This document shows, in pieces, positions 1 to 61,172 of a stretch of 64,000 nt of DNA. Numbering within the stretch: position 1 is the stretch's first letter; the number at the start of each line of letters is the position of its first letter. The notes below the pieces were generated by a model. The model did no database searches, had not been told where the DNA came from, and worked only from the letters and a program-made list of their open reading frames with translations. Position numbers and translations under genes: made by a program. The stretch lies in the sequence record NC_031103.1. One strand, 5' to 3'. The stretch is from Escherichia phage vB_EcoM-UFV13.

Positions 1-654
<654 letters not shown>

Positions 655-673
<19 letters not shown>

Positions 674-1143
674 TCAGTGATAAAGTTATTTAAATTTTGA
701 GTATATTTCTTTTCATCAAAAATCTTTTGCTGCCTACGTAAACGCCATGGCATTTCAATGAACACGCACCATATTCCTGATAGTACTGCTGCTGTAAAAA
801 TATTAACAAGTATGATTAAAAGAATCCAATCTCCCGTTCTGCCTACTGGACTTTCTCCAAAGAAGCAAAATACAAATGATGTCACAGGAAAACTAATGAT
901 ATACCACAGAATAACCTTCTTATCTGTGAACCAATCAGCGTTCGTTAATTTAGCGCGACCATTATGAATACACACGAATTTATCATCTGTTGCAGTAGAT
1001 GGCTTAACTGGTTGATATCCCATTCTAAACTCCCTAATCAGCAAATTTTTCATATCTTCGGAACAGCCGCTCCAGTCAACTCTATCGACTGAAATGCCAT
1101 CGTCCCCATCATCTAAATCATACCAGCGAGTTTTTAAAATCAT
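655..1143 (-). CDS. Hypothetical membrane protein (e.2-like)
   Basis: 162 aa ORF with hydrophobic C-terminal segments; start overlaps the next ORF. Confidence 0.6.
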
Positions 1144-1502
1144 TTGATTTTCCTACAATCACTCACAAACTCTTTCATTGATTCATTTTCAATATAAGAC
1201 ATGTAGTTATTATATTCTTTTAANTGTATTTTGTAATCCTTTTTTCTTTGCCAATTTATTTTAAAATTATCATAATGAAAATATAGTATAGTGCTAAAGA
1301 ATGAAAATAATGAAATCGCTATAGTAAAACGAAGTTCACTCCAAACCTCTGTTATAATTGCTGAACTATCGATGTTTAAAATAAAACAGTCAATCATTAG
1401 TCCAATAAGACTACCCGCAAGAGCTGCAAATACTGATACGGCAAGAATTAATAGCGCCTCAGGAAACGAATATTTGACTTTATTTANTTTTGGCTTTTGC
1501 AT
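1140..1502 (-). CDS. Hypothetical small membrane protein (e.3-like); contains ambiguous bases
   Basis: 120 aa ORF with two hydrophobic helices; n at 1224 and 1487 gives X residues. Confidence 0.55.
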   Translation of the reverse strand: MQKPKXNKVKYSFPEALLILAVSVFAALAGSLIGLMIDCFILNIDSSAIITEVWSELRFTIAISLFSFFSTILYFHYDNFKINWQRKKDYKIXLKEYNNYMSYIENESMKEFVSDCRKIK

Positions 1503-1897
1503 CGTGATTCCTTAACAAATTTCATAATTTCNTTAAATTCATACATATNTAGTTTAAGCTGGTGTTCCTTTTTAATCTTTTTNCACTGNGCTTTCCAATC
1601 ACGTACGCGTTTACGATAATGTCTTCCTTGATACCAGTATCCTACCCAATTTACGGGTACTAATAAAAGTGGAACTATTAATGGAAGAATTAGCATTAAC
1701 ACAAGTATTTCGCCAGAATCAATATCAGTCATAACATCTAAAACACCTCCAATAATCAATAGAATTACAAATGATATGAGTATAACAGGACCTATTAATA
1801 CATCAGTAGAAATTAGCTGGCGCTTTAATTCATACTTTAAGGGTTTACTTGGAAGATACATTGATGGCTTTGACATATTCTCTACATTCCTTAACAA
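1484..1897 (-). CDS. Hypothetical small membrane protein (e.4-like); contains ambiguous bases
   Basis: 137 aa ORF with long hydrophobic stretch; n at 1532, 1549, 1583, 1589. Confidence 0.55.
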   Translation of the reverse strand: MLRNVENMSKPSMYLPSKPLKYELKRQLISTDVLIGPVILISFVILLIIGGVLDVMTDIDSGEILVLMLILPLIVPLLLVPVNWVGYWYQGRHYRKRVRDWKXQXKKIKKEHQLKLXMYEFXEIMKFVKESRCKSQX

Positions 1898-2453
1898 ATT
1901 TTTCTAATAATAAATCGCTTTCAAAATTAGGATTTTCCACGAATTTATCAAAAAGATCATCAACGATAGTTAAGATATTCTTTTTACTAAGAATACGCTT
2001 ATTTTCATATTTTGTTTCAGAGTCAACTATAAGAGTAAAGAAATATTTCTTTCCCTGAAATTTTACCGTAGTATCAATATAGAACAAATTTGACTTTTGT
2101 AAATTACGTTTAAACCATGCATCACTTAAACTATAAACGCCAAGATAATCATAATCGTCATTTAAATAACAAACTGTCCATTCAGGAGAAATGAAATCAG
2201 TAAATTCAACATCAAAATCACACGTCAATGAATGAATTGATTCAATACTTTTAATGAGTATTCCAGGACGTATTAAAGACTTTTTACCTCTAGAAAATCT
2301 TCCAGAAAGACTTTCATCAGTTTCATATGAAGACCCCCAATAATAATTACGTCCTTCTGCCATACGTTTAAGAGCATTTAGTAATTGGTCTGGAACATCA
2401 ACCTGTCTTTGGAACTCTTCAAACATTGAATTGAAATCACTTTGCATTTTCAT
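1845..2453 (-). CDS. Hypothetical protein (e.5-like)
   Basis: 202 aa ORF in the co-oriented e.x array. Confidence 0.6.
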   Translation of the reverse strand: MKMQSDFNSMFEEFQRQVDVPDQLLNALKRMAEGRNYYWGSSYETDESLSGRFSRGKKSLIRPGILIKSIESIHSLTCDFDVEFTDFISPEWTVCYLNDDYDYLGVYSLSDAWFKRNLQKSNLFYIDTTVKFQGKKYFFTLIVDSETKYENKRILSKKNILTIVDDLFDKFVENPNFESDLLLEKFVKECREYVKAINVSSK

Positions 2454-2474
2454 TCCTATTTACTCCAAGTAATA

Positions 2475-2488
2475 GGGGCCGAAGCCCC
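2475..2488 (-). terminator. Stable GC hairpin with UUCG tetraloop on the transcribed strand, between e.6 and e.5
   Basis: plus ggggccgaagcccc; minus strand reads GGGGC-UUCG-GCCCC. Confidence 0.5.
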
Positions 2489-2494
2489 TTATCA

Positions 2495-3088
2495 TTATTT
2501 CAGAGAATTAATATATTCCTGGACATCGGCAGAGGTGGTTTCAACCCCAGAAATATTGCCGTTAAAAGTTTCAACTCGAGCAAGGGTATCTTCAATATCA
2601 ACCTTAGTCAGTGCTGCAATTTCAACTACATCATCGGCAGTACTAATTCCAAGGGCATTTGCTGCACGAGTTTCACGGATATATTCCAATTTAACTGCAA
2701 GTTCTTGACGAGCATCATCTAACTCAACTACTTTCTTGGCGATTTCAATTCGCATTTCAGCATAACCGTCAGCTTTAGTAGTCAACTGCTCAGCTGTTCG
2801 ACGATATAGTAAACCAAGTTTAGCATGCATTGTTACATCTTGACCTTCAGAAAGAAGTTTACGAATTTCACGCTCTTTTGATTCGGCCTGTCGATTCTTT
2901 TCGATAACAAGTTCACGAATACGTTTTTCTTCATTAATAGATTTAACGGAAGCAGTTTTTAGATCTTTAATCTTATCAAGTAGTTTTGCTGCCGCAGCAG
3001 TATACTGTTCTTCAACAGATAGATTTTTAGCCATAGCAGAACCAAGTTTAGTGCGAATAAACTCAACAATTTTCTTCAGTGTATTCAT
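2495..3088 (-). CDS. Hypothetical coiled-coil protein (e.6-like)
   Basis: 197 aa ORF rich in K/E/L heptad-like sequence. Confidence 0.6.
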
Positions 3089-3115
3089 AGTATTTCCTTA
3101 GGTTGGTATAATTAG

Positions 3116-3145
3116 ATAATATCACGTTTCTAATAGATTGTAAAC
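3116..3145 (-). promoter_or_regulatory. Candidate early promoter upstream of the e.6-like gene
   Basis: minus strand reads GTTTACA, 17 nt spacer, TATTAT; about 25 nt upstream of the ATG. Confidence 0.4.
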
Positions 3146-3481
3146 TTATTCTTCGTCTAGCTCGTCGATAAAGGCGTCGATGGCCTCGACAACGGCATCA
3201 TTGATAGCCAATAAAATAAAATCATCGTCAGTACCTTTAGAAGATTCTAAAGCATTGATATATGCTTGGTTGGCGAGTTCCCAAGCCTTTTTAAAATAAG
3301 GAGCTTCATCATCGGGGCCAACGAAACGTACGCCTTCAAAGATACGGTTAGCATAATCCAATACCCACTGTACAGGCATGTTTTGAGAACGTTCGTTAAA
3401 CTCTTTAAATTCCTTAGATTCAAAAAGCTCTTCAGGATAATCATTTCTATTACAAAAAGCTTTACTAAAGTTACGTTTCAT
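3146..3481 (-). CDS. Hypothetical acidic protein (e.7-like)
   Basis: 111 aa ORF. Confidence 0.6.
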   Translation of the reverse strand: MKRNFSKAFCNRNDYPEELFESKEFKEFNERSQNMPVQWVLDYANRIFEGVRFVGPDDEAPYFKKAWELANQAYINALESSKGTDDDFILLAINDAVVEAIDAFIDELDEE

Positions 3482-3525
3482 AATGTTTTCCTTGTGATGA
3501 TAAATCTATAGTAACGCCTTCATAC

Positions 3526-3690
3526 TTAGATGTAAACTATTTCAACATCGCCTTTTGCTGCTTTATAACCTTCAGCCCAAGATATAACCGAGTTTTTATC
3601 CGAAGATTCAAATTCTGGCATTGGGCTTTCGCCAATGTTCACGCAGTATGTTTCTTCATTTTCGTCAAACCAAATAATTAAAGTAGTCAT
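3526..3690 (-). CDS. Small hypothetical protein, about 54 aa, not in the ORF track (below size cutoff)
   Basis: ATG preceded by GGAGAAATAA Shine-Dalgarno (plus 3691-3700 ttatttctcc); reads MTTLIIWFDENEETYCVNIGESPMPEF... Confidence 0.35.
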   Translation of the reverse strand: MTTLIIWFDENEETYCVNIGESPMPEFESSDKNSVISWAEGYKAAKGDVEIVYI

Positions 3691-3759
3691 TTATTTCTCC
3701 GTTTTCTGTATTTGTTTTGATAAGTCTATAATAACACCGTCCTTGGCGTTTGTACACAA

Positions 3760-4023
3760 TTATTTCATATTATTGAAATATTCTTCTGCGATTTCATCGT
3801 TATCATGGTAAACTTTAGAAGACAGTTTAACATAACCTTCTGCTGTGAACATATTAATCACAACCTTTACAGTATACCACTGACCATCTTCATTACCCAT
3901 TACTGCGTAAGTTTCAAACATCGGATGATCAGGACCGATAACTTTAATATCATTCACCGTACGACCAAAATCTTCTGAAACACATTTCATAAAGAAGTTG
4001 AACAGTTCGCCGTAATTATCCAT
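3760..4023 (-). CDS. Hypothetical protein (e.8-like); start placed at internal ATG with SD
   Basis: Track ORF 3760..4152 begins at a TTG; internal ATG at 4021-4023 is preceded by GGAGAACGAA and gives MDNYGELFNFF... Confidence 0.5.
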   Translation of the reverse strand: MDNYGELFNFFMKCVSEDFGRTVNDIKVIGPDHPMFETYAVMGNEDGQWYTVKVVINMFTAEGYVKLSSKVYHDNDEIAEEYFNNMK

Positions 4024-4228
4024 TTCGTTCTCCAAGTTGTTTTCTGTATCAGTAGTTGATAGTTGTATAGTACCATGGAAGAACAGGGATGTAAACAGTT
4101 TTGTGAAAAATTTTTTAAAAAGTTTTGGGAATTCTAGGGCAGGGAGGGGCAATTAAAGGATAGGATAATATATTATAAAGGATAGAAACTAAATGATGCC
4201 TAGAGAGGCCCGGAAAGGCCTAGATGCC

Positions 4229-4253
4229 AAAAAGCCCTATCACTTAGATAGGG
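4229..4253 (-). terminator. Rho-independent terminator downstream of ORF 4262..4828
   Basis: minus strand: CCCTATC-TAAGT-GATAGGG hairpin followed by CTTTTT. Confidence 0.6.
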
Positions 4254-4261
4254 ATTTAAAA

Positions 4262-4828
4262 TTATTTACCTAGTTTAGTTATTATAGCTTCTGCGGCAGC
4301 TTTTAGCTTAGATGCGGTGTTAATACGATTTTTAATTTCAGTATACGCATCGCCAAGAACATCAAGGCTATCGGAATAAACACTTACACTATTGCGTTCG
4401 CTATTTGAAATAGAACCTTTAGTTTTACGATCAAAATCGGTGTACACGTCTTGAAGATCGCGGGCTGCCTTCTTTGCGTCATCCAATGCATCAAGAGCTT
4501 TATTCAAAGCATTAACGTATTTTTTAGTGTCGAACATATTCTTAGAAATTTTAACAGGTGCACGTTCAGGAGTAGCTAAGGCAGATTTAGGAAGAACCTG
4601 TTTGCCAGATGCCAGTTTCTTAGAAATTTTGAAAAACGCTTTATTGAAATTATTTTCTTGACTCATCGTAAAAGAACTATTATCAATGTTATACATTTCA
4701 ATAGCTTTAGCTTTCCACTTAAGAAAATCGCCACGGTCTTTTGGGTCCAAGTGGAAGAATACTTTAGTAAGATCTGCTTCAGATGGTAATTTTGCTGCTT
4801 CGGTTAAAAATTCGGCGTAGGTTTTCAT
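4262..4828 (-). CDS. Internal-protein-like capsid-packaged protein candidate with N-terminal capsid-targeting sequence
   Basis: 188 aa; N-terminus MKTYAEFLTEA resembles the T4 internal-protein CTS and contains a prohead-protease-type L-x-E site (LTE/A). Confidence 0.7.
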   Translation of the reverse strand: MKTYAEFLTEAAKLPSEADLTKVFFHLDPKDRGDFLKWKAKAIEMYNIDNSSFTMSQENNFNKAFFKISKKLASGKQVLPKSALATPERAPVKISKNMFDTKKYVNALNKALDALDDAKKAARDLQDVYTDFDRKTKGSISNSERNSVSVYSDSLDVLGDAYTEIKNRINTASKLKAAAEAIITKLGK

Positions 4829-4911
4829 TTAAAATCCTTGAAATAATTTATTGGTTATTAATTATTTATCACGTTGTTATATGTAACAGCATTCTCCGAG
4901 CGATTCAAACT

Positions 4912-4939
4912 AAAAAGCCCCAACCTTTCTGTCGGGGCT
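4912..4939 (-). terminator. Rho-independent terminator downstream of ORF 4947..5420
   Basis: minus strand AGCCCCGACAGAAAGGTTGGGGCT followed by TTTT; near-identical copy at 5466..5493. Confidence 0.65.
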
Positions 4940-4946
4940 AAAAATA

Positions 4947-5420
4947 TTATTTAATTTGCTTAGCAGACCAAATGCGGTCTTTAATAATTTTTTGGATGTC
5001 TTCAACATATTCAAGAGAGTGAACATGTGGGTTATCTTTGAAACTATAAGCACGAGCTAGCTTTTGGCCTTCAGTTTTGATTACTAAAAGCTCTTTAAGG
5101 ATAGCTTCATATTTGGAGATAATTCCTTTAACGATATTTTTCTCTTGTGTGACTTTAGGATCTGCTTTAGGAGCAGGTTTACCTGAAGCCTTTGCAAAAG
5201 CAGCNCCAGTAGCAACTAAACTTTTCCANGCCATACTAACAGCATTCCCCGTAAATCCTTCTGCTTTCATGTCGCGAGCAAATTGGAATCGTGATTCATC
5301 AGAAGCATCTTTATAGGAATATTTACCCGCGGCAATGGCNGCTTTTGCNACAGCTTGAATTTCAGTGCTAGATGCTTCATTTAACACCGCTTCATTTAAA
5401 AATTGAGCATATGATTTCAT
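4947..5420 (-). CDS. Internal-protein-like capsid-packaged protein candidate with CTS; paralogous N-terminus to ORF 4262..4828; contains ambiguous bases
   Basis: 157 aa; N-terminus MKSYAQFLNEA with LNE/A site; n at 5205, 5229, 5340, 5349. Confidence 0.65.
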   Translation of the reverse strand: MKSYAQFLNEAVLNEASSTEIQAXAKXAIAAGKYSYKDASDESRFQFARDMKAEGFTGNAVSMXWKSLVATXAAFAKASGKPAPKADPKVTQEKNIVKGIISKYEAILKELLVIKTEGQKLARAYSFKDNPHVHSLEYVEDIQKIIKDRIWSAKQIK

Positions 5421-5456
5421 CTTATTTCCTGTTTTAATTCGTGGTTTTAATATACT

Positions 5457-54937: not shown

Positions 54938-54940
54938 CAA

Positions 54941-54971
54941 TGGGGACCGAAAGGTCCCCATATTTTTATTT
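54941..54971. terminator. Bidirectional terminator between gene 54 and the convergent minus-strand ORF
   Basis: TGGGGACC-GAAA-GGTCCCCA hairpin followed by tatttttattt. Confidence 0.65.
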
Positions 54972-55256
54972 ACGGAATGAAATAAAAGCAGCAACTGAAG
55001 CAACTAAACTGTCTTCAATATAAACTTCAATTTTTACCGGAGCTTCTGACTCAAATTTACCTGTTACTACACCTTGAAAAATACTTTCAGTCTGTTCTGG
55101 CTTTGAAAAATTTTCAGAAGGAAAAATTCCGAACTTTTTATCCGTTCCAAAAATTTTGATAAATTCATCGTAAACTGCTTCATTAAAAGCATTATCAGCA
55201 GGAATAACGCCTTCAACTACAAGTTCTTGACCTAAAAAGCGCAAAGAAGATTTCAT
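54966..55256 (-). CDS. Hypothetical protein
   Basis: 96 aa ORF downstream of the alt paralogue. Confidence 0.55.
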   Translation of the reverse strand: MKSSLRFLGQELVVEGVIPADNAFNEAVYDEFIKIFGTDKKFGIFPSENFSKPEQTESIFQGVVTGKFESEAPVKIEVYIEDSLVASVAAFISFRK

Positions 55257-55316
55257 TTTGTGTTCCTCATGTTATGTCAGTAAGACTACTATAACACAAC
55301 ATAAGGAACTTGTAAA

Positions 55317-57374
55317 CTACATTTTGAACTTTTTAGACATTCCGTTGATGTTAACCAAAGAAGCTAAGATTTGAGAAACTTCGTTTTCCTCTTCTTTTGA
55401 TTCTTCTACAAGGAATTGATTAAATCCAGTCATTGGACGAACTTCACCAGTTTCCATCAGATGGTCGCCATCATATACTGATTCTTCTAATTGTTCAGAA
55501 GGAGGAACGATTGTACCTTCGATTAGATACTTGTTATAAGCAGTTTCTTTCATAAAGTAAGTACTTACTTTATTAATCTTCAGTAAAATTCCACGCGGTA
55601 GAATAACTTCAGCTTCTGATGGAAATCCTGATAAATGACCTGGAACGATAACTTTGATTCGCTCAGCTCCTTTAATTACCATACCCACGCTAGTTTCAGC
55701 ATCTTCATTAGCATATGTAGAATGACTACCCATATGCATTAAATCTTCGGCATCAACGGAACCTTCTCCTTCACCAGAAAATACTGCGCCGGAATCATCT
55801 AGAGCCATATAGTTTTTACCATGCTCACCGAAGATATTTGGTTTAAGCGATGTGGATACGAAGTTCTTGAAATAGAACATTTTATTTTCAATGTTATGAC
55901 GCAAAGTTTTAAAGGTAACTTCTTGTCCACGGTAAAGTGTAGTTCCTGGAGGAAGAACTGATCCTTTGGCAAAGGCAGAATCCAACGTCTCGATGTGCTT
56001 AATAGCTCGTTCCATGTATTCTTCACGGGTAGAATCTGGTTTACCCAAAAGGAACGAGTTCATTTCAACATATGAATCTGCACAATAATCTTCAATTACA
56101 TCAGATTCAGCTTGGGTTAGTCCTTTTGGAGTTACTTCGGTGCTTGCGTATTCATATGCCTGAGCAGCAGATTCATTAATCAATTTATAAATGCCATTCA
56201 TTACAAATTGAATAATAGCTGTCTTTTCATCTGGTGTAGCTTTAGAACCTTTAACTAAATCATTGATAATTTTCTTAATAACATCAAAGCTATTAGAAAT
56301 ATTAATGTCAGCAAGATCACTTAAAATTTTATCAGTTTTATAATCAAAGAATTCTTTATTCTTTAAATATTCTTGAGAACCTTGATATGTTATATCGCTC
56401 TGCAGCTTGATAGATGGATCGCGTAAACGTGCATGGGCCAATGCAATATGATTTCGGAAGCTTTCTAGTTCATAATCGTTAGATTTAAAACGAGAAGCAC
56501 TTCTCATACCACCGATAGCTCCTTTGCTGAAGTTTGAACCAATCTGAATAACGCCAGAGTTCATTGGTCCTTCTGCTTTATATACCGGAACCTTAGATTC
56601 AAACTCTTGATATTTCTTAGCAGCGAAGCTATCACCCTGAAGTGAAGCGTCAACAGTAGAATATTGAGCTTGTGCTGCTAATCGACGACTAATTTTAGTT
56701 TTCTGAATAACAGCTTGGTCAGTACGTTTATCATTTTCTAAAGCAATAGAAGCAGCAACAGCGACAGCTTTAGGAACAGCATTACCTGTTTTAACGTCTA
56801 CATAAACATCACCAACCTTTGATTCAACTTTTGTGAATAACTCAGTTGAAATAGGAGGTACACCTGGAATGTCTTCTAAATTGGCATTTTTACGGTAAAC
56901 CATAATATATGCATATTTCTTATCATAGTCCCAGATTTCCTTTAAGAGAACATATCGACCTGCTCCTTTAGTACGTACTAAACGGTCAGCAATAACTTGC
57001 ATTTGACGAGCAGCGCCATTTGTTTTACTTTTTAGTACGCGGAATAGGCATGCATCAATTTTATACTGCTTCATTGTTTGAAGAGCAGTATCAAAAACAG
57101 CATTAATGACACCAATTGGATTTCCACCCAAGTTTCTAAGCTTAACCAGCGATAATTTCTCGTTGACACCTATCATTACGATATGCATCATTTTATCGCC
57201 TGGCTTAACGTTTTTATTTGTATCACCGCCAGAGGTGTATGTACAAAATCTAAATCCAGGAAGCACACTTTCTTCACCGGCTTGAATAGCAAAAATTTGA
57301 GGTATTTTATGCTTAGGATTTAAGTTAACAACCGGCGCCGAAGCGCCGTCAAATAATTCTGTAATAAGTTCCAT
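55317..57374 (-). CDS. Alt-family ADP-ribosyltransferase paralogue (second copy)
   Basis: 685 aa; N-terminus MELITELFDGASAPVVNLNPK parallels the adjacent gene; ART motifs LYRG, FVSTS, EAEVILPRG. Confidence 0.85.
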   Translation of the reverse strand: MELITELFDGASAPVVNLNPKHKIPQIFAIQAGEESVLPGFRFCTYTSGGDTNKNVKPGDKMMHIVMIGVNEKLSLVKLRNLGGNPIGVINAVFDTALQTMKQYKIDACLFRVLKSKTNGAARQMQVIADRLVRTKGAGRYVLLKEIWDYDKKYAYIMVYRKNANLEDIPGVPPISTELFTKVESKVGDVYVDVKTGNAVPKAVAVAASIALENDKRTDQAVIQKTKISRRLAAQAQYSTVDASLQGDSFAAKKYQEFESKVPVYKAEGPMNSGVIQIGSNFSKGAIGGMRSASRFKSNDYELESFRNHIALAHARLRDPSIKLQSDITYQGSQEYLKNKEFFDYKTDKILSDLADINISNSFDVIKKIINDLVKGSKATPDEKTAIIQFVMNGIYKLINESAAQAYEYASTEVTPKGLTQAESDVIEDYCADSYVEMNSFLLGKPDSTREEYMERAIKHIETLDSAFAKGSVLPPGTTLYRGQEVTFKTLRHNIENKMFYFKNFVSTSLKPNIFGEHGKNYMALDDSGAVFSGEGEGSVDAEDLMHMGSHSTYANEDAETSVGMVIKGAERIKVIVPGHLSGFPSEAEVILPRGILLKINKVSTYFMKETAYNKYLIEGTIVPPSEQLEESVYDGDHLMETGEVRPMTGFNQFLVEESKEEENEVSQILASLVNINGMSKKFKM

Positions 57375-57377
57375 GAT

Positions 57378-59474
57378 TTATCCTTGAACGAACTTGTAAG
57401 GCATGTTTGTAATATCTATGCAAGACGCAATAATTCCAAGAGATGATTCTACTTTCTGTTTAACATTTGATGAAACAAATGATGCAAAGTCAACTCTGTC
57501 TTCTACTTCAATATCACCTGTCATTGCAACTACTTCACCGGTTTCCATTAAATGGTCTCCGTCATAGATTACCGATTCGGTGAGCTCTTCCGTAGTCATA
57601 ACTTCAGCTTGAATGAGTTTTGTATTATTAGATGTTGTTCCGTCATTATTAGAAGCATCAGTTATTTTATTAACTTTGACCATCAATCCGCGCGGTAGAA
57701 TAACTTCAGCTTCTGTTGCTATTCCGAGACTTCCTGGATATACAACATTAACTTTATGAGCTCCATCAATTGCCCATCCTATTTGAACTTTAACGTATTC
57801 AGGATTTTCTTTATACGCTCTTATTTCGTTTGGATTAATAGTTATTCCTTCTTCATTTTTATCAACTGTTAATTCATTGCGAGCTTCTGGTTCTAAAAGA
57901 CCAATACCAGCATGTGTAATTCCAAAACGTCCAAAAATGATAGGAGTTAAAGAAGTAGATACAAAATTTCTGAAATAGAACACTTTATTTTTAACTAGTG
58001 CTTCGTATATAGGAGCAGTCATACTTTGAGCACGATAAACTGTAATGCCTTCCGGTATGCGGTCACCATTTTCAAAAGCTGAATCTAAATTATTTATAGC
58101 AGATTCAATTTCTTTTTCACTCATTACATCATATCGTTCTGGATTGTAACGACCTAAAAGAAGATTATTAATGTCTGTATATCCTGAACCACAATATTCT
58201 CTAATACCTCGCTTTTGTGATGGAGTATATTTAGAACCATCACGGGCGATAGTAATATCAATCATTGGACCAGCGCCAATTCCGGAAAAGCTATAAATCA
58301 TTCGTTTGAGGAATTTAGTTTTTGCCGCATTCCAGGCATTTTTAGTTATTTCTCCCCAGACTTCATCTGACTGCCCTTTACGAGTTTTATTATGTTTATC
58401 AAGCCAATTATCTTTGTATTCTTCAAAGAATTTATTAACAGCTGCTGCGTATTTCTCTAAACATTTTATTGAAGTAGTTGGTTCATTTTTGATTGCGTTA
58501 AAAATTACATCTTTAATTTTTTCTGAAACTTCATCAACCTCACTTTTTGAAAAGAATTTATAGTCATAGTGAAGTTCATTCGCAGTTCCTTCGGCAATAA
58601 TTTTTGCTGCCTTAGTTTTAGAAGCTAATGAATTAATTCCAAGCTTCATTTCTTCTGCTTCGGGAATTAAAGGAGCGGTAGCAGGTTTATTGAAATTAGC
58701 TGCGGTAGATTCATACTTCTGGAATAATTCACTTTCAAATCTAGAAGATTCCAATGATTGACTTTGCGCAATTGCTCTACGGGAAATTTTAACTTTAACG
58801 ATTACAGCTTGGTCAGAACGCTTATCATTTTCTTGCGCAATAGATGCTGCAATTGCCTCATTTTTAGTTACTTGGGCTCCAGTATCTTTATTGATATAAA
58901 CATCACCGACCTTCGATTCAACTTTAGTAAAGAGCTCGGTACTAATTTCCGGAACTCCTGGAATGTCTTCTAGCGATACATTTTTGCGATGTATAAGAAT
59001 ATATGCATACTTTTTATCGTAATCCCAGAGTTCCTTAAGAAGGACGTATCTGCCACCTGAACGACTACGGATAAGTCTATCAGCAATAACTTGAATTTGT
59101 CGAGCTTGACCAGCAGTTTTAGACTTAAGAATACGAAGCATACAAGCATCAATTTTATATTGACGCATAGTTTGCATTGCAACAGTAAAAACTGAATTGA
59201 TATAATTAATTGGGCTTGGACCAAGACCTTTTAATTTAGCAATTGAACCTTTAGCAGTTAATGTAAAAGGAACAATATGCATCATTTTATCGCCCATCTT
59301 TAAATCGCGATTAGTATCACCTCCAGATGTATAGGTACATAAACGAAAGCCTGGTTGTTCAATTGCATCATCAACATGAACTGAAAAAATTTGTGGTATT
59401 TTCTTCTTTGGATTTAAGTTTGTAATCGGAAGAGTAGTATCTTCGTCAAATAATTCTGTAATAAGTTCCATCAT
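57378..59474 (-). CDS. alt: Alt ADP-ribosyltransferase (capsid-packaged, injected)
   Basis: 698 aa; ART motifs VYRA, FVSTS, TEAEVILPRG; N-terminus MMELITELFDEDTTLPITNLNPKKKIPQIF. Confidence 0.85.
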   Translation of the reverse strand: MMELITELFDEDTTLPITNLNPKKKIPQIFSVHVDDAIEQPGFRLCTYTSGGDTNRDLKMGDKMMHIVPFTLTAKGSIAKLKGLGPSPINYINSVFTVAMQTMRQYKIDACMLRILKSKTAGQARQIQVIADRLIRSRSGGRYVLLKELWDYDKKYAYILIHRKNVSLEDIPGVPEISTELFTKVESKVGDVYINKDTGAQVTKNEAIAASIAQENDKRSDQAVIVKVKISRRAIAQSQSLESSRFESELFQKYESTAANFNKPATAPLIPEAEEMKLGINSLASKTKAAKIIAEGTANELHYDYKFFSKSEVDEVSEKIKDVIFNAIKNEPTTSIKCLEKYAAAVNKFFEEYKDNWLDKHNKTRKGQSDEVWGEITKNAWNAAKTKFLKRMIYSFSGIGAGPMIDITIARDGSKYTPSQKRGIREYCGSGYTDINNLLLGRYNPERYDVMSEKEIESAINNLDSAFENGDRIPEGITVYRAQSMTAPIYEALVKNKVFYFRNFVSTSLTPIIFGRFGITHAGIGLLEPEARNELTVDKNEEGITINPNEIRAYKENPEYVKVQIGWAIDGAHKVNVVYPGSLGIATEAEVILPRGLMVKVNKITDASNNDGTTSNNTKLIQAEVMTTEELTESVIYDGDHLMETGEVVAMTGDIEVEDRVDFASFVSSNVKQKVESSLGIIASCIDITNMPYKFVQG

Positions 59475-59507
59475 AGCCTCTCTAGTGTTTATTCTATTTA
59501 TAAAATT

Positions 59508-59525
59508 AAAGGCCCGAAGGCCTTT
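59508..59525 (-). terminator. UUCG-tetraloop hairpin upstream of alt
   Basis: plus aaaggcccgaaggccttt. Confidence 0.45.
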
Positions 59526-59712
59526 AGTAATCTAGTGGTAAGAGAGTACGATATATTTCAAACTTTGGTCCTTTTTCATAGGCATCAAATGTTTCTGTAA
59601 ATTTATTATAAGCGTATGCATCTACAAATTCGAGAATGACTTGTGATACAGAAGTAGAAACATCTCCACCTTCTTTTTGAGCAATGACAATTGTTTCTAA
59701 GTAAGCTTTCAT
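59524..59712 (-). CDS. Hypothetical small protein
   Basis: 62 aa ORF between gene 30 and alt. Confidence 0.5.
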   Translation of the reverse strand: MKAYLETIVIAQKEGGDVSTSVSQVILEFVDAYAYNKFTETFDAYEKGPKFEIYRTLLPLDY

Positions 59713-61172
59713 AGACCAGTTACCTCATGAAAATCGCCAAATACATCTTCGAACGTATTAGCTTTAGTTTTATCTTCGCGTAAACGAATCGCAATTGGAA
59801 GAAATAATTTAACGTAATCAGTGCGGCCATCAGATTTTAACCAACCGTTGCATTCGCACTCTAGAATTTTTCCAATATAATAATTTTGGTTTTCCATAAT
59901 GCGAGTACGGTCAAGTTCATGCGATTTTACGCCGGCTTTATCTTTTAAGCCTGAACCAGCATTTACTTTAATTTTTCCACACTCTGACTCAAGAATAAAT
60001 CCACCTGCTTTAGTAGGGTCTTTACGGTGAGGATAAATTCCTACAATTTTTAAATCAACATCAATTACTTCTTTAAATTTATAAAGATTTTTTGAACGAG
60101 CATTTTCCCATAATCCATCGATATTTTTGAGAATAATACCTTCAAGACCTTGGTCAATATACTTTTTATAAATTACCTTAGCTTCATCTAGGTTATTTAC
60201 TACCTGGTTTTCAATTAAAATTACTTTATCATAACCTGATGTCATTTGTTCTAGTTTAGAAAAACGTACATCATATTTCAAACGAAATGCAGGAAGACCG
60301 TATATTTCTACCAACGGGACATAATCCCAGACCTGAAACTTCATGCATTGAGCTTCTTTTTCAGAAATGGTTCCCTTTAAAGATTTATTAGCGATTCCAT
60401 TAGAAGCAGTACGTGATTCAGCTACTTCGGCGAATTCTTTAGCTTTACTAATTTCAGGATAAGCATCAAAAAGAAAATCTAGGCCTTCTGGCTCCTTTTT
60501 AACTTGCTCATGGTATACCAATTCGCCATCAATTAACACACCTTCTGGATGAATCTGGCGGGCTTCAGCGGTCATTTTGATTAACTCTTCTTTGAGAAGG
60601 TCTAATCCTAGATATTCATTACCAGCTCGTGATAAAAGACGAACATCATCTAATTCATCACCTCTGACTTCAGCAAAGCACCGAGCCCCATCAGCTTTTA
60701 ACTGGGCAAAGGCTGGAAATTTGATATTCTTATTAATGCCTTTTTCATCATAAGAACTTGCCAGCATTTGAGGTTGTTCAGGAATTAAACCTGGCCAAAC
60801 TTTGTTTGCAATAGATACTGAAGCACCGCATTCAAGGTCTCGCATCATCACCCGACGCAAAACTTCAACATCATCTTTTTTACCGTCAGTAATATATCCA
60901 GTTAATTCCTCAATTGCCGCATTTCCAGTCAATTTCCGAGTAGCTAACGTGAATTCAATGAAGTCGAGCATATCGGTAAGAGTCAACATTCCAAAACTCT
61001 GGGTAGCAATACCCGGTTTAGGCCATTTCTTGATATAATACTGTAACCCACGAGAATAAGTCAGACGATATACTCGTTTAAGCAATTCATTATCTTTATT
61101 CTTTTCAAGAATTGCTTGCTTCTGCTTAGTTGAACCAATAGATGCTATTTCGTTCAGAATTTTAAGAATCAT
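59709..61172 (-). CDS. 30: ATP-dependent DNA ligase
   Basis: 487 aa; adenylation motif I LKADGAR. Confidence 0.9.
   Translation of the reverse strand: MILKILNEIASIGSTKQKQAILEKNKDNELLKRVYRLTYSRGLQYYIKKWPKPGIATQSFGMLTLTDMLDFIEFTLATRKLTGNAAIEELTGYITDGKKDDVEVLRRVMMRDLECGASVSIANKVWPGLIPEQPQMLASSYDEKGINKNIKFPAFAQLKADGARCFAEVRGDELDDVRLLSRAGNEYLGLDLLKEELIKMTAEARQIHPEGVLIDGELVYHEQVKKEPEGLDFLFDAYPEISKAKEFAEVAESRTASNGIANKSLKGTISEKEAQCMKFQVWDYVPLVEIYGLPAFRLKYDVRFSKLEQMTSGYDKVILIENQVVNNLDEAKVIYKKYIDQGLEGIILKNIDGLWENARSKNLYKFKEVIDVDLKIVGIYPHRKDPTKAGGFILESECGKIKVNAGSGLKDKAGVKSHELDRTRIMENQNYYIGKILECECNGWLKSDGRTDYVKLFLPIAIRLREDKTKANTFEDVFGDFHEVTGL

Follow-up and report, generated by a model that had tools for sequence, protein, structure and literature searches.

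The Alt protein of phage T4 (gpAlt, NP_049811) is a head-packaged, injected mono-ADP-ribosyltransferase whose host targets are not limited to RNA polymerase. On that enzyme it modifies Arg265 of the alpha subunit, in one alpha subunit (PMC2988021), a modification demonstrated for T4 Alt alone. The prohead protease gp21 cuts T4 Alt at ITE-6 and LTE-619 (PMC5694885; review PMC9026906), the second cleavage taking off 63 residues (PMC5694885), and an E577A mutant is inactive (PMC11404850). The E-x-E motif of T4 Alt counts as E574-M-E576 on NP_049811, against the published E577A, while LTE-619 agrees with NP_049811 numbering. Duplications of alt have been described in phages 44RR and RB49 and as small open reading frames (ORFs) in T4 (Nolan et al. 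2006, PMC1524935): in T4 a single full-length alt precedes the small ORFs alt.-1 (61 amino acids, aa) and alt.-2 (67 aa), which the text of the T4 record calls an ancient duplication of the initial part of alt. The 64-kb stretch of Escherichia phage vB_EcoM-UFV13 analysed here (the window; NC_031103.1, 64,000 nucleotides) is a T-even (Tequatrovirus) segment with two full-length Alt-like genes at this locus, here called altA and altB:

57378..59471, minus strand: altA, 697 aa (698 aa with the first ATG at 59474), positional orthologue of T4 alt
55317..57374, minus strand: altB, 685 aa, second paralogue (RB32 'alt.-2')

By analogy with T4 Alt, and with a probability of about 0.7, these genes are taken to be two old tandem paralogues, both functional, that encode head-packaged, injected arginine ADP-ribosyltransferases with different targets. 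What is new here is the exact origin of T4 alt.-1 and alt.-2, the ancestral and strongly constrained nature of the pair, and its domain-wise mosaic history.

The preliminary description of this DNA, made from the sequence alone, had reported two adjacent minus-strand ORFs of 685 aa (55317-57374) and 698 aa (57378-59474), and both are present, with the start of altA corrected to 59471. A GAGAGG Shine-Dalgarno sequence lies 2 nucleotides (nt) from the first ATG of altA and 5 nt from the second; because of this spacing, and of the same annotation in RB32 and T2, the second ATG at 59471 is most likely the start of a 697-aa product beginning MELITE. A gap of 3 nt separates the altA stop codon from the altB start codon, and AAGGA lies 6 nt ahead of the latter. 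The two proteins align end to end (42% identity, E = 5e-165). Both match PF03496 (ADPrib_exo_Tox) of Pfam, with 71.9 bits for altB and 128.7 bits for altA against a curated gathering cut-off of 23.4, and phrog_802, 'Alt-like RNA polymerase ADP-ribosyltransferase', aligns with the whole of each (854 and 909 bits for the two proteins); neither has a match in NCBIfam. The E value together with the Pfam and PHROG matches rules out chance or mis-called ORFs, and the genes occupy a conserved genome position between DNA ligase/alt.1 and alt.-3/gene 54. All full-length Alt homologues carry the precomputed Pfam match PF26846.1 besides PF03496, presumably for the N-terminal or the central part of Alt.

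Alignment of altA, altB and T4 Alt, together with an AlphaFold2 model of altB (predicted local distance difference test score, pLDDT, 73.9), divides the proteins into four parts, given here by altB residue with the identity between altA and altB:

residues ~1-238: MELITE propeptide and alpha/beta domain, 67-68%
residues ~239-415: helical centre, about 18% or less (3-20% in 40-column windows)
residues ~416-622: ADP-ribosyltransferase (ART) domain with R, S-T-S and E-A-E, 35%
residues ~623-685: tail, with pLDDT <50 in the altB model, 46%

These values bear out the strong divergence that had been noticed in the central and C-terminal regions. The motifs that had been listed as shared (MELITELFD, NLNPK.KIPQIF and PGFR.CTYTSGGDTN) all occur in both proteins, as does the ART signature (YR.Q, FVSTSL and EAEVILPRG). 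The features of the two genes are as follows:

58752..59471, minus strand: altA N-terminal domain, aa 1-240
57381..57575, minus strand: predicted altA C-terminal propeptide, aa 633-697, after the conserved LTE (predicted cleavage)
altA motifs: ITE-6, R480, S505-T-S507, E587-A-E589, LTE-632
56655..57374, minus strand: altB N-terminal alpha/beta domain, aa 1-240, proposed head-packaging module
55509..56129, minus strand: altB ADP-ribosyltransferase domain, aa ~416-622 (PF03496 over aa 416-620)
55320..55481, minus strand: predicted altB C-terminal propeptide, aa 632-685, after LEE-631, with pLDDT <50 (predicted cleavage)
altB motifs: ITE-6, R482, S507-T-S509, E587-A-E589, LEE-631

The Arg, Ser-Thr-Ser and Glu-x-Glu elements are present in that order in both proteins and align with the YR and E-Y-E segments of CDTa and iota toxin. 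The comparison of ART folds rests on the altB model, for which Foldseek returned Vis, Certhrax, CDTa, C3, VIP2 and iota toxin at probability 1.00, with target-normalised template modelling (TM) scores of 0.53-0.66 to single-domain toxins; structure searches of the PDB found no Alt structure. In R-S-E ADP-ribosyltransferases, E-x-E instead of Q-x-E fits arginine specificity, and the region before E-x-E helps substrate recognition in C3 and iota toxins. This region reads F-P-S-E-A-E in altB, I-A-T-E-A-E in altA and P-S-N-E-M-E in T4 Alt, and the altB residues include an aromatic, as in Y-A-G-E-Y-E of iota toxin. From the unrelated centres and the differing loop before E-x-E, it is plausible that AltA and AltB have different targets. 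Motifs of the gp21 type are found at both ends of both proteins, aligned with the T4 sites (ITE-6 and LTE-632 in altA, ITE-6 and LEE-631 in altB), and the predicted mature masses are 70.1 kDa (altA) and 69.2 kDa (altB), compared with 68.2 kDa for T4 Alt.

The preliminary description had set the pair against the single alt gene of T4 as something out of the ordinary, a reading that did not survive comparison with other phages: T4 indeed has only one full-length alt, and both copies in the window have intact catalytic motifs, but most T4 relatives have both genes, and the annotation of T2, T6 and RB32, among others, already shows this. The 4.9-kb locus matches 543 phage records and is at least 80% covered in 339 of them, including T2, T6, RB27, RB32, RB33, RB3 and Sf22; here and below the counts are of records and not of independent isolates, the collection including RefSeq/GenBank duplicates and several T4 entries. 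Identity to altB reaches at least 95% in ~395 phage records and stays below 60% in almost all others, with 6 records in between, and the 5' region of altB is present in 485 records. RefSeq names both genes 'Alt-like RNA polymerase ADP-ribosyltransferase', and the second gene of RB32 is annotated 'alt.-2 ... similar to alt'; this gene, like the second Alt-like gene of T2, T6, RB27, Ozark and Sf22, is the same gene as altB in the same position. The best match of the window in the phage collection has ~97% identity at most over 24 kb, the nearest records being Ozark, Sf22, RB33 and RB32. With 97-98% DNA identity and no difference of substance between the RB32-type locus and that of the window, the latter is one more member of the group. 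altA is 99.7% identical to RB33 Alt, and the RB32-type altA allele is present in ~315 phage records; the band of 60-80% identity to altA comprises 211 records, which are the T4-type allele (~70%) and Dhakavirus Alt (~66%).

The small ORFs of T4 resemble altB more closely than alt. The products of alt.-1 and alt.-2 correspond to residues 1-56 and 62-116 of altB with 95-96% identity, and are only 56-62% identical to T4 Alt or altA; the PHROG families of the two ORFs (phrog_23015 and phrog_15247) likewise score higher on altB than on altA. DNA alignment located two lesions in T4. One A is missing from a run of A, which splits the frame, and further on there is a junction exactly at CTAAAAAGT, a 9-bp sequence that occurs twice in intact altB:

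57027..57035, minus strand: upstream copy of CTAAAAAGT, left end of the T4 deletion
55328..55336, minus strand: downstream copy of CTAAAAAGT, right end of the T4 deletion

From the position of the junction at these direct repeats, T4 carries a 1,699-bp deletion between them. Thus, compared with altB, alt.-1 and alt.-2 are frameshifted by the loss of 1 nt and truncated by the deletion. Of 484 records matched by a query that spans the T4 junction, 91 cover it and the rest match its two halves separately, and phage Lv5cm has the same remnant with the same CTAAAAAGT junction. Since alt.-1 and alt.-2 correspond to a remnant of altB with a deletion junction, and the junction is found in so few records, the sequences indicate that T4 is the derived, minority state and that its two small ORFs are the 5' remnant of a full-length altB.

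The age of the duplication was addressed by comparing the window proteins and T4 Alt with those of Dhakavirus JS10 and IME281 (two genes each), Moonvirus CF1 (two, the second split), Mosigvirus APCEc01 and Gelderlandvirus CGG4-1 (one each), Biquartavirus 44RR (three) and a Krischvirus (two). In Dhakavirus JS10 and IME281 (694 and 707 aa) and in Moonvirus CF1, tandem Alt-like genes stand at the same locus, and the downstream copies are of the altB type in centre, ART domain and tail. altB is 45% identical to the JS10 and IME281 downstream copies in the centre, 57-58% in the ART domain and 61-68% in the tail, and to the CF1 downstream copy, which is split into two ORFs, 48% in the ART domain and 53% in the tail. 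Against full-length upstream-type Alt proteins, its identity is at most 18% in the centre, 33-40% in the ART domain and 39-46% in the tail. As these three parts of altB group with the downstream copies of other genera, the comparison dates the duplication of the effector part to before the split of Tequatrovirus, Dhakavirus and Moonvirus, and indicates that the two-gene state is ancestral for Tequatrovirus and that T4 lost altB. More distant tandem loci occur in Biquartavirus 44RR (Aeromonas phage 44RR2.8t), with three consecutive Alt-like genes of 319, 639 and 642 aa (locus 558-5426), and in Krischvirus Delraymugoa, with a 683-aa full-length gene and then a 274-aa ART-only gene (locus 2411-5365); the 44RR and Krischvirus copies could not be assigned to the altA or the altB type.

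The N-terminal domains have a different pattern and cluster for the most part by genome, which is plain in Tequatrovirus and Dhakavirus: identity is 68% between altA and altB and 67-68% between the two JS10 copies, but 42-46% across Tequatrovirus and Dhakavirus. CF1 fits poorly, its own two N-terminal domains being 59% alike and its downstream copy closer to CGG4-1 (76%). This pattern may reflect homogenisation within genomes, or the movement of downstream-type cassettes between genera. altA and altB DNA are near-identical in the first 31 nt and otherwise 71-78% identical, with 71-73% in the rest of the N-terminal region, so that homogenisation, if it took place, did not do so recently. The restriction of near-identical DNA to those 31 nt rules out recent gene conversion between altA and altB.

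Recombination between genera is apparent within altA itself. Sliding-window nucleotide identity along the gene gave:

altA gene nt 1-715: T4 alt 94-100%, JS10/IME281 upstream alt 40-64%
altA gene nt ~715-1255: T4 alt 37-73%, JS10/IME281 upstream alt 61-78%
altA gene nt ~1255-1880: T4 alt 40-80%, JS10/IME281 upstream alt 80-98%
altA gene nt 1880-2094: T4 alt 86-99%, JS10/IME281 upstream alt 49-64%
57592..58217, minus strand: altA catalytic cassette, gene nt ~1255-1880, recombinant segment

The catalytic cassette, with ~90% DNA identity to Dhakavirus alt and T4-like flanks, is on this sequence evidence a clear inter-genus recombination tract. In the protein, the altA ART domain is 94-95% identical to that of Dhakavirus Alt versus 65% to that of T4 Alt, and the centre 65% versus 31%. 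The alleles of the two genes have also been reassorted:

window, RB32 and T2: altA RB32-type, altB intact
PYPS2T: altA T4-type, altB intact
T4: altA T4-type, altB remnant
Lv5cm: altA RB32-type, altB remnant

All four combinations thus exist, which implies recombination within the locus.

Selection on the two genes was estimated by the Nei-Gojobori method among the window, RB32, T2 and PYPS2T; Shigella phage sb4 was left out, its locus being fragmented into many short ORFs, most likely by assembly errors. Synonymous divergence (dS) is 0.07-0.15, and the ratio of nonsynonymous to synonymous divergence (dN/dS) is 0.025-0.055 for altA and 0.019-0.041 for altB, with low values in each of the four altB regions (0.02-0.04). 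In several pairs the altB ART domain has no amino-acid changes against 13-24 synonymous ones. From these low ratios, both altA and altB are maintained by selection. The intact frame, the intact motifs and dN/dS rule out altB as a pseudogene. The preliminary description had proposed a duplication followed by diversification; the proteins are true Alt paralogues, but the duplication is not recent, being shared with Dhakavirus and Moonvirus, and both copies are highly conserved, so that their divergence does not represent recent diversification in vB_EcoM-UFV13.

The N-terminal domain is the part that would anchor the proteins in the head. That of altA differs hardly or not at all from T4 Alt (99.6-100% identity), and its identity is 68% with altB and 46% with the Dhakavirus upstream Alt. 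The domain modelled alone gave pLDDT 84.4 and a predicted TM score of 0.83. Searched as a profile against 1.84 billion representative proteins, the domain matched no more than 74 clusters. Almost all of these are Alt-like, and the great majority are proteins of 560-790 aa with the domain at the N-terminus; five of the 10 divergent members that were scanned have a C-terminal ART domain. The same profile search gave no support at the sequence level for fusion of the domain to other effector types, and eight N-terminal domains scanned against Pfam at E <= 10 returned nothing meaningful, with no sequence-level match to GNAT. Foldseek against predicted viral structures matched the domain also to large uncharacterised proteins of other myoviruses, a few of them annotated with zeta-toxin, deaminase or ParB domains (E 1e-8 to 1e-4, query-normalised TM ~0.4-0.5). 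As a lead only, these model-based matches hint at a wider head-delivery module.

Signals that may govern transcription of the locus were identified by a terminator scan and by pattern searches:

59507..59526, minus strand: intrinsic terminator hairpin, after alt.1 and just upstream of the alt late promoter (terminator scan and sequence)
59495..59502, minus strand: T4-type late promoter box TATAAATA, ~24-31 nt 5' of the altA start (pattern search and sequence)
55288..55316, minus strand: putative sigma-70 or T4-early-type promoter, TTTACA, 17 nt, TG-TATAGT (consensus match only)
54940..54961: bidirectional terminator hairpin between alt.-3 and gene 54 (terminator scan of both strands and sequence)

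The hairpin after alt.1 is conserved in T4, RB32, PYPS2T, JS10, CF1 and CGG4-1, and the TATAAATA box is at the same place before alt in T4, RB32, PYPS2T, CF1 and CGG4-1. Judged by the established T4 late promoter consensus, the box upstream of altA would act as a promoter, and of the two alt genes only the upstream one, altA, has such a box ahead of it. A second exact TATAAATA lies within the altA coding region (58091-58098, minus strand) and may be a chance match; there are 24 sites of this type in the window versus 9.6 expected. No terminator was found by the scan between altA and altB, nor after altB until the hairpin at 54940-54961, which is the first downstream of the alt late promoter. 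The early-type promoter lies directly 3' of the altB stop codon, ahead of alt.-3. altA and altB are thus probably made late from one promoter upstream of altA, a co-transcription that we infer from consensus matches.

Under the preferred interpretation, late expression from this promoter would be followed by anchoring of each protein in the prohead core through the ~235-residue alpha/beta domain behind the ITE-6 propeptide, and gp21 would trim both ends of both proteins, as in T4 Alt. The head would retain a few tens of copies, to be delivered along with the DNA into the cell, where each enzyme would ADP-ribosylate arginines of its own set of host proteins, with target specificity set by the divergent centre and the loop before E-x-E.

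Three other explanations of the pair were weighed. A recent, phage-specific duplication of alt, still diversifying from a single-gene T4-like ancestor, would account for the single full-length alt of T4 and for N-terminal domains that are more alike within a genome (68%) than between orthologues across genera (42-46%). It is scarcely credible in view of the decayed 5' end of altB in T4 with its clear deletion junction, the intact altB of ~390-400 records, the grouping of altB centre, ART domain and tail with the Dhakavirus and Moonvirus downstream copies, an altA-altB DNA identity of only 71-78% outside the first 31 nt, and dN/dS of 0.02-0.05, which signifies conservation and not ongoing diversification. 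Nor is altB likely to be a redundant or decaying copy that has no activity of its own and is heading to the T4 state. Its loss from T4 and ~91 records with no obvious harm, and the failure of literature searches to find a published function, are what such decay would predict, but hundreds of records keep the 685-codon frame intact, dN/dS is 0.02-0.04 in all four regions with an ART domain free of amino-acid change in several comparisons, and the catalytic R, S-T-S and E-x-E are intact; decay is accordingly very improbable.

An active but unpackaged AltB, which would act late in the producing cell or on phage proteins while only AltA is injected, is unlikely to a lesser degree, given that packaging has been demonstrated for T4 Alt only and that altB, being second in the unit, could yield less protein. 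Nevertheless, AltB retains the MELITE propeptide, the conserved N-terminal domain, the aligned C-terminal L-x-E and a disordered tail like that of T4 Alt, for which there is no evident reason in a protein outside the prohead. Two injected enzymes with different targets therefore remain the preferred interpretation. Several points weigh against it. T4 and about 90 other records manage well without an intact altB, so that phages can dispense with it at least on laboratory hosts; the promoters are assigned by consensus match only; and packaging, processing, injection and activity of AltB are predictions by analogy. Moreover, the discussion of a targeting signal in T4 covers the short propeptide only (PMC9026906, PMC5694885), the packaging role of the N-terminal domain being our extension of it, and no literature on the second paralogue was found with respect to function, detection in virions or experiments. 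A bolder proposal, to which we give somewhat less than even odds, is that AltB is a second head-delivered ADP-ribosyltransferase with its own host targets and that the alt locus is a polymorphic-effector system, in which a lineage-matched N-terminal head anchor (possibly with a GNAT-like fold, found also in proteins of other myoviruses) is combined with effector modules exchanged within and between genera.

The gene order on the minus strand is DNA ligase gp30, alt.1, altA, altB and alt.-3, followed by genes 54 and 48 on the plus strand. The neighbours on the minus strand are:

59709-61172, minus strand: DNA ligase gp30
59524-59712, minus strand: alt.1, 62 aa, Pfam PF24647 'Phage_blade' (101.9 bits)
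54966..55256, minus strand: alt.-3, 96 aa, DUF5498 (Pfam PF17602, 215 bits; phrog_1739; T4 and RB32 annotation)

The start codon of alt.1 and the stop codon of the DNA ligase gene overlap by 4 nt. alt.-3 is a neighbour gene and does not encode an ADP-ribosyltransferase; in T4, C-terminal extensions of Alt.-3 block CmdA degradation and so allow escape from the CmdTAC defence system (PMC11618068).

As genome annotation the locus is ordinary, and its value is that it points to an uncharacterised, strongly conserved enzyme, AltB, that is easy to test. Most knowledge of injected phage ADP-ribosyltransferases comes from T4, yet T4 is atypical at this locus, having lost the second enzyme and having in its remaining Alt an effector segment unlike the allele of T2, T6, RB32 and vB_EcoM-UFV13. 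Anyone extending T4 Alt biology (Arg265 of RNA polymerase alpha, MazF and other targets) should consider that most T-even phages carry two enzymes, and that neither enzyme of typical two-gene T-even phages is identical to T4 Alt in the target-facing parts; phages used in therapy or in studies of bacterial defence systems are among them. If AltB does have its own targets, the injected-enzyme repertoire of most T-even phages would be essentially unstudied.

Compared with T4 Alt, altA has the same position, late promoter box, upstream terminator, cleavage motifs and catalytic residues, and is 70% identical overall, with 99.6-100% identity in the N-terminal 240 residues and 96% in the tail but 31% in the centre and 65% in the ART domain. 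altB has the same whole architecture as T4 Alt and is 41% identical to it end to end, with an unrelated centre (9%) and an ART domain of 38% identity. As the effector segments of both proteins differ from those of T4 Alt, its target data cannot be transferred with confidence to either. The R-S-E toxins of the C3/VIP2/iota/CDTa/Vis group (PF03496) have the same fold and the same catalytic R, S-T-S and E-x-E as the Alt proteins, which differ from them in a 400-residue phage-specific N-terminal extension and a cleavable tail. The means of delivery also differs: toxins of the C3/VIP2 group reach their targets through a binary toxin pore or by secretion, and the Alt proteins, by analogy with T4 Alt in the case of AltA and AltB, through the phage head.

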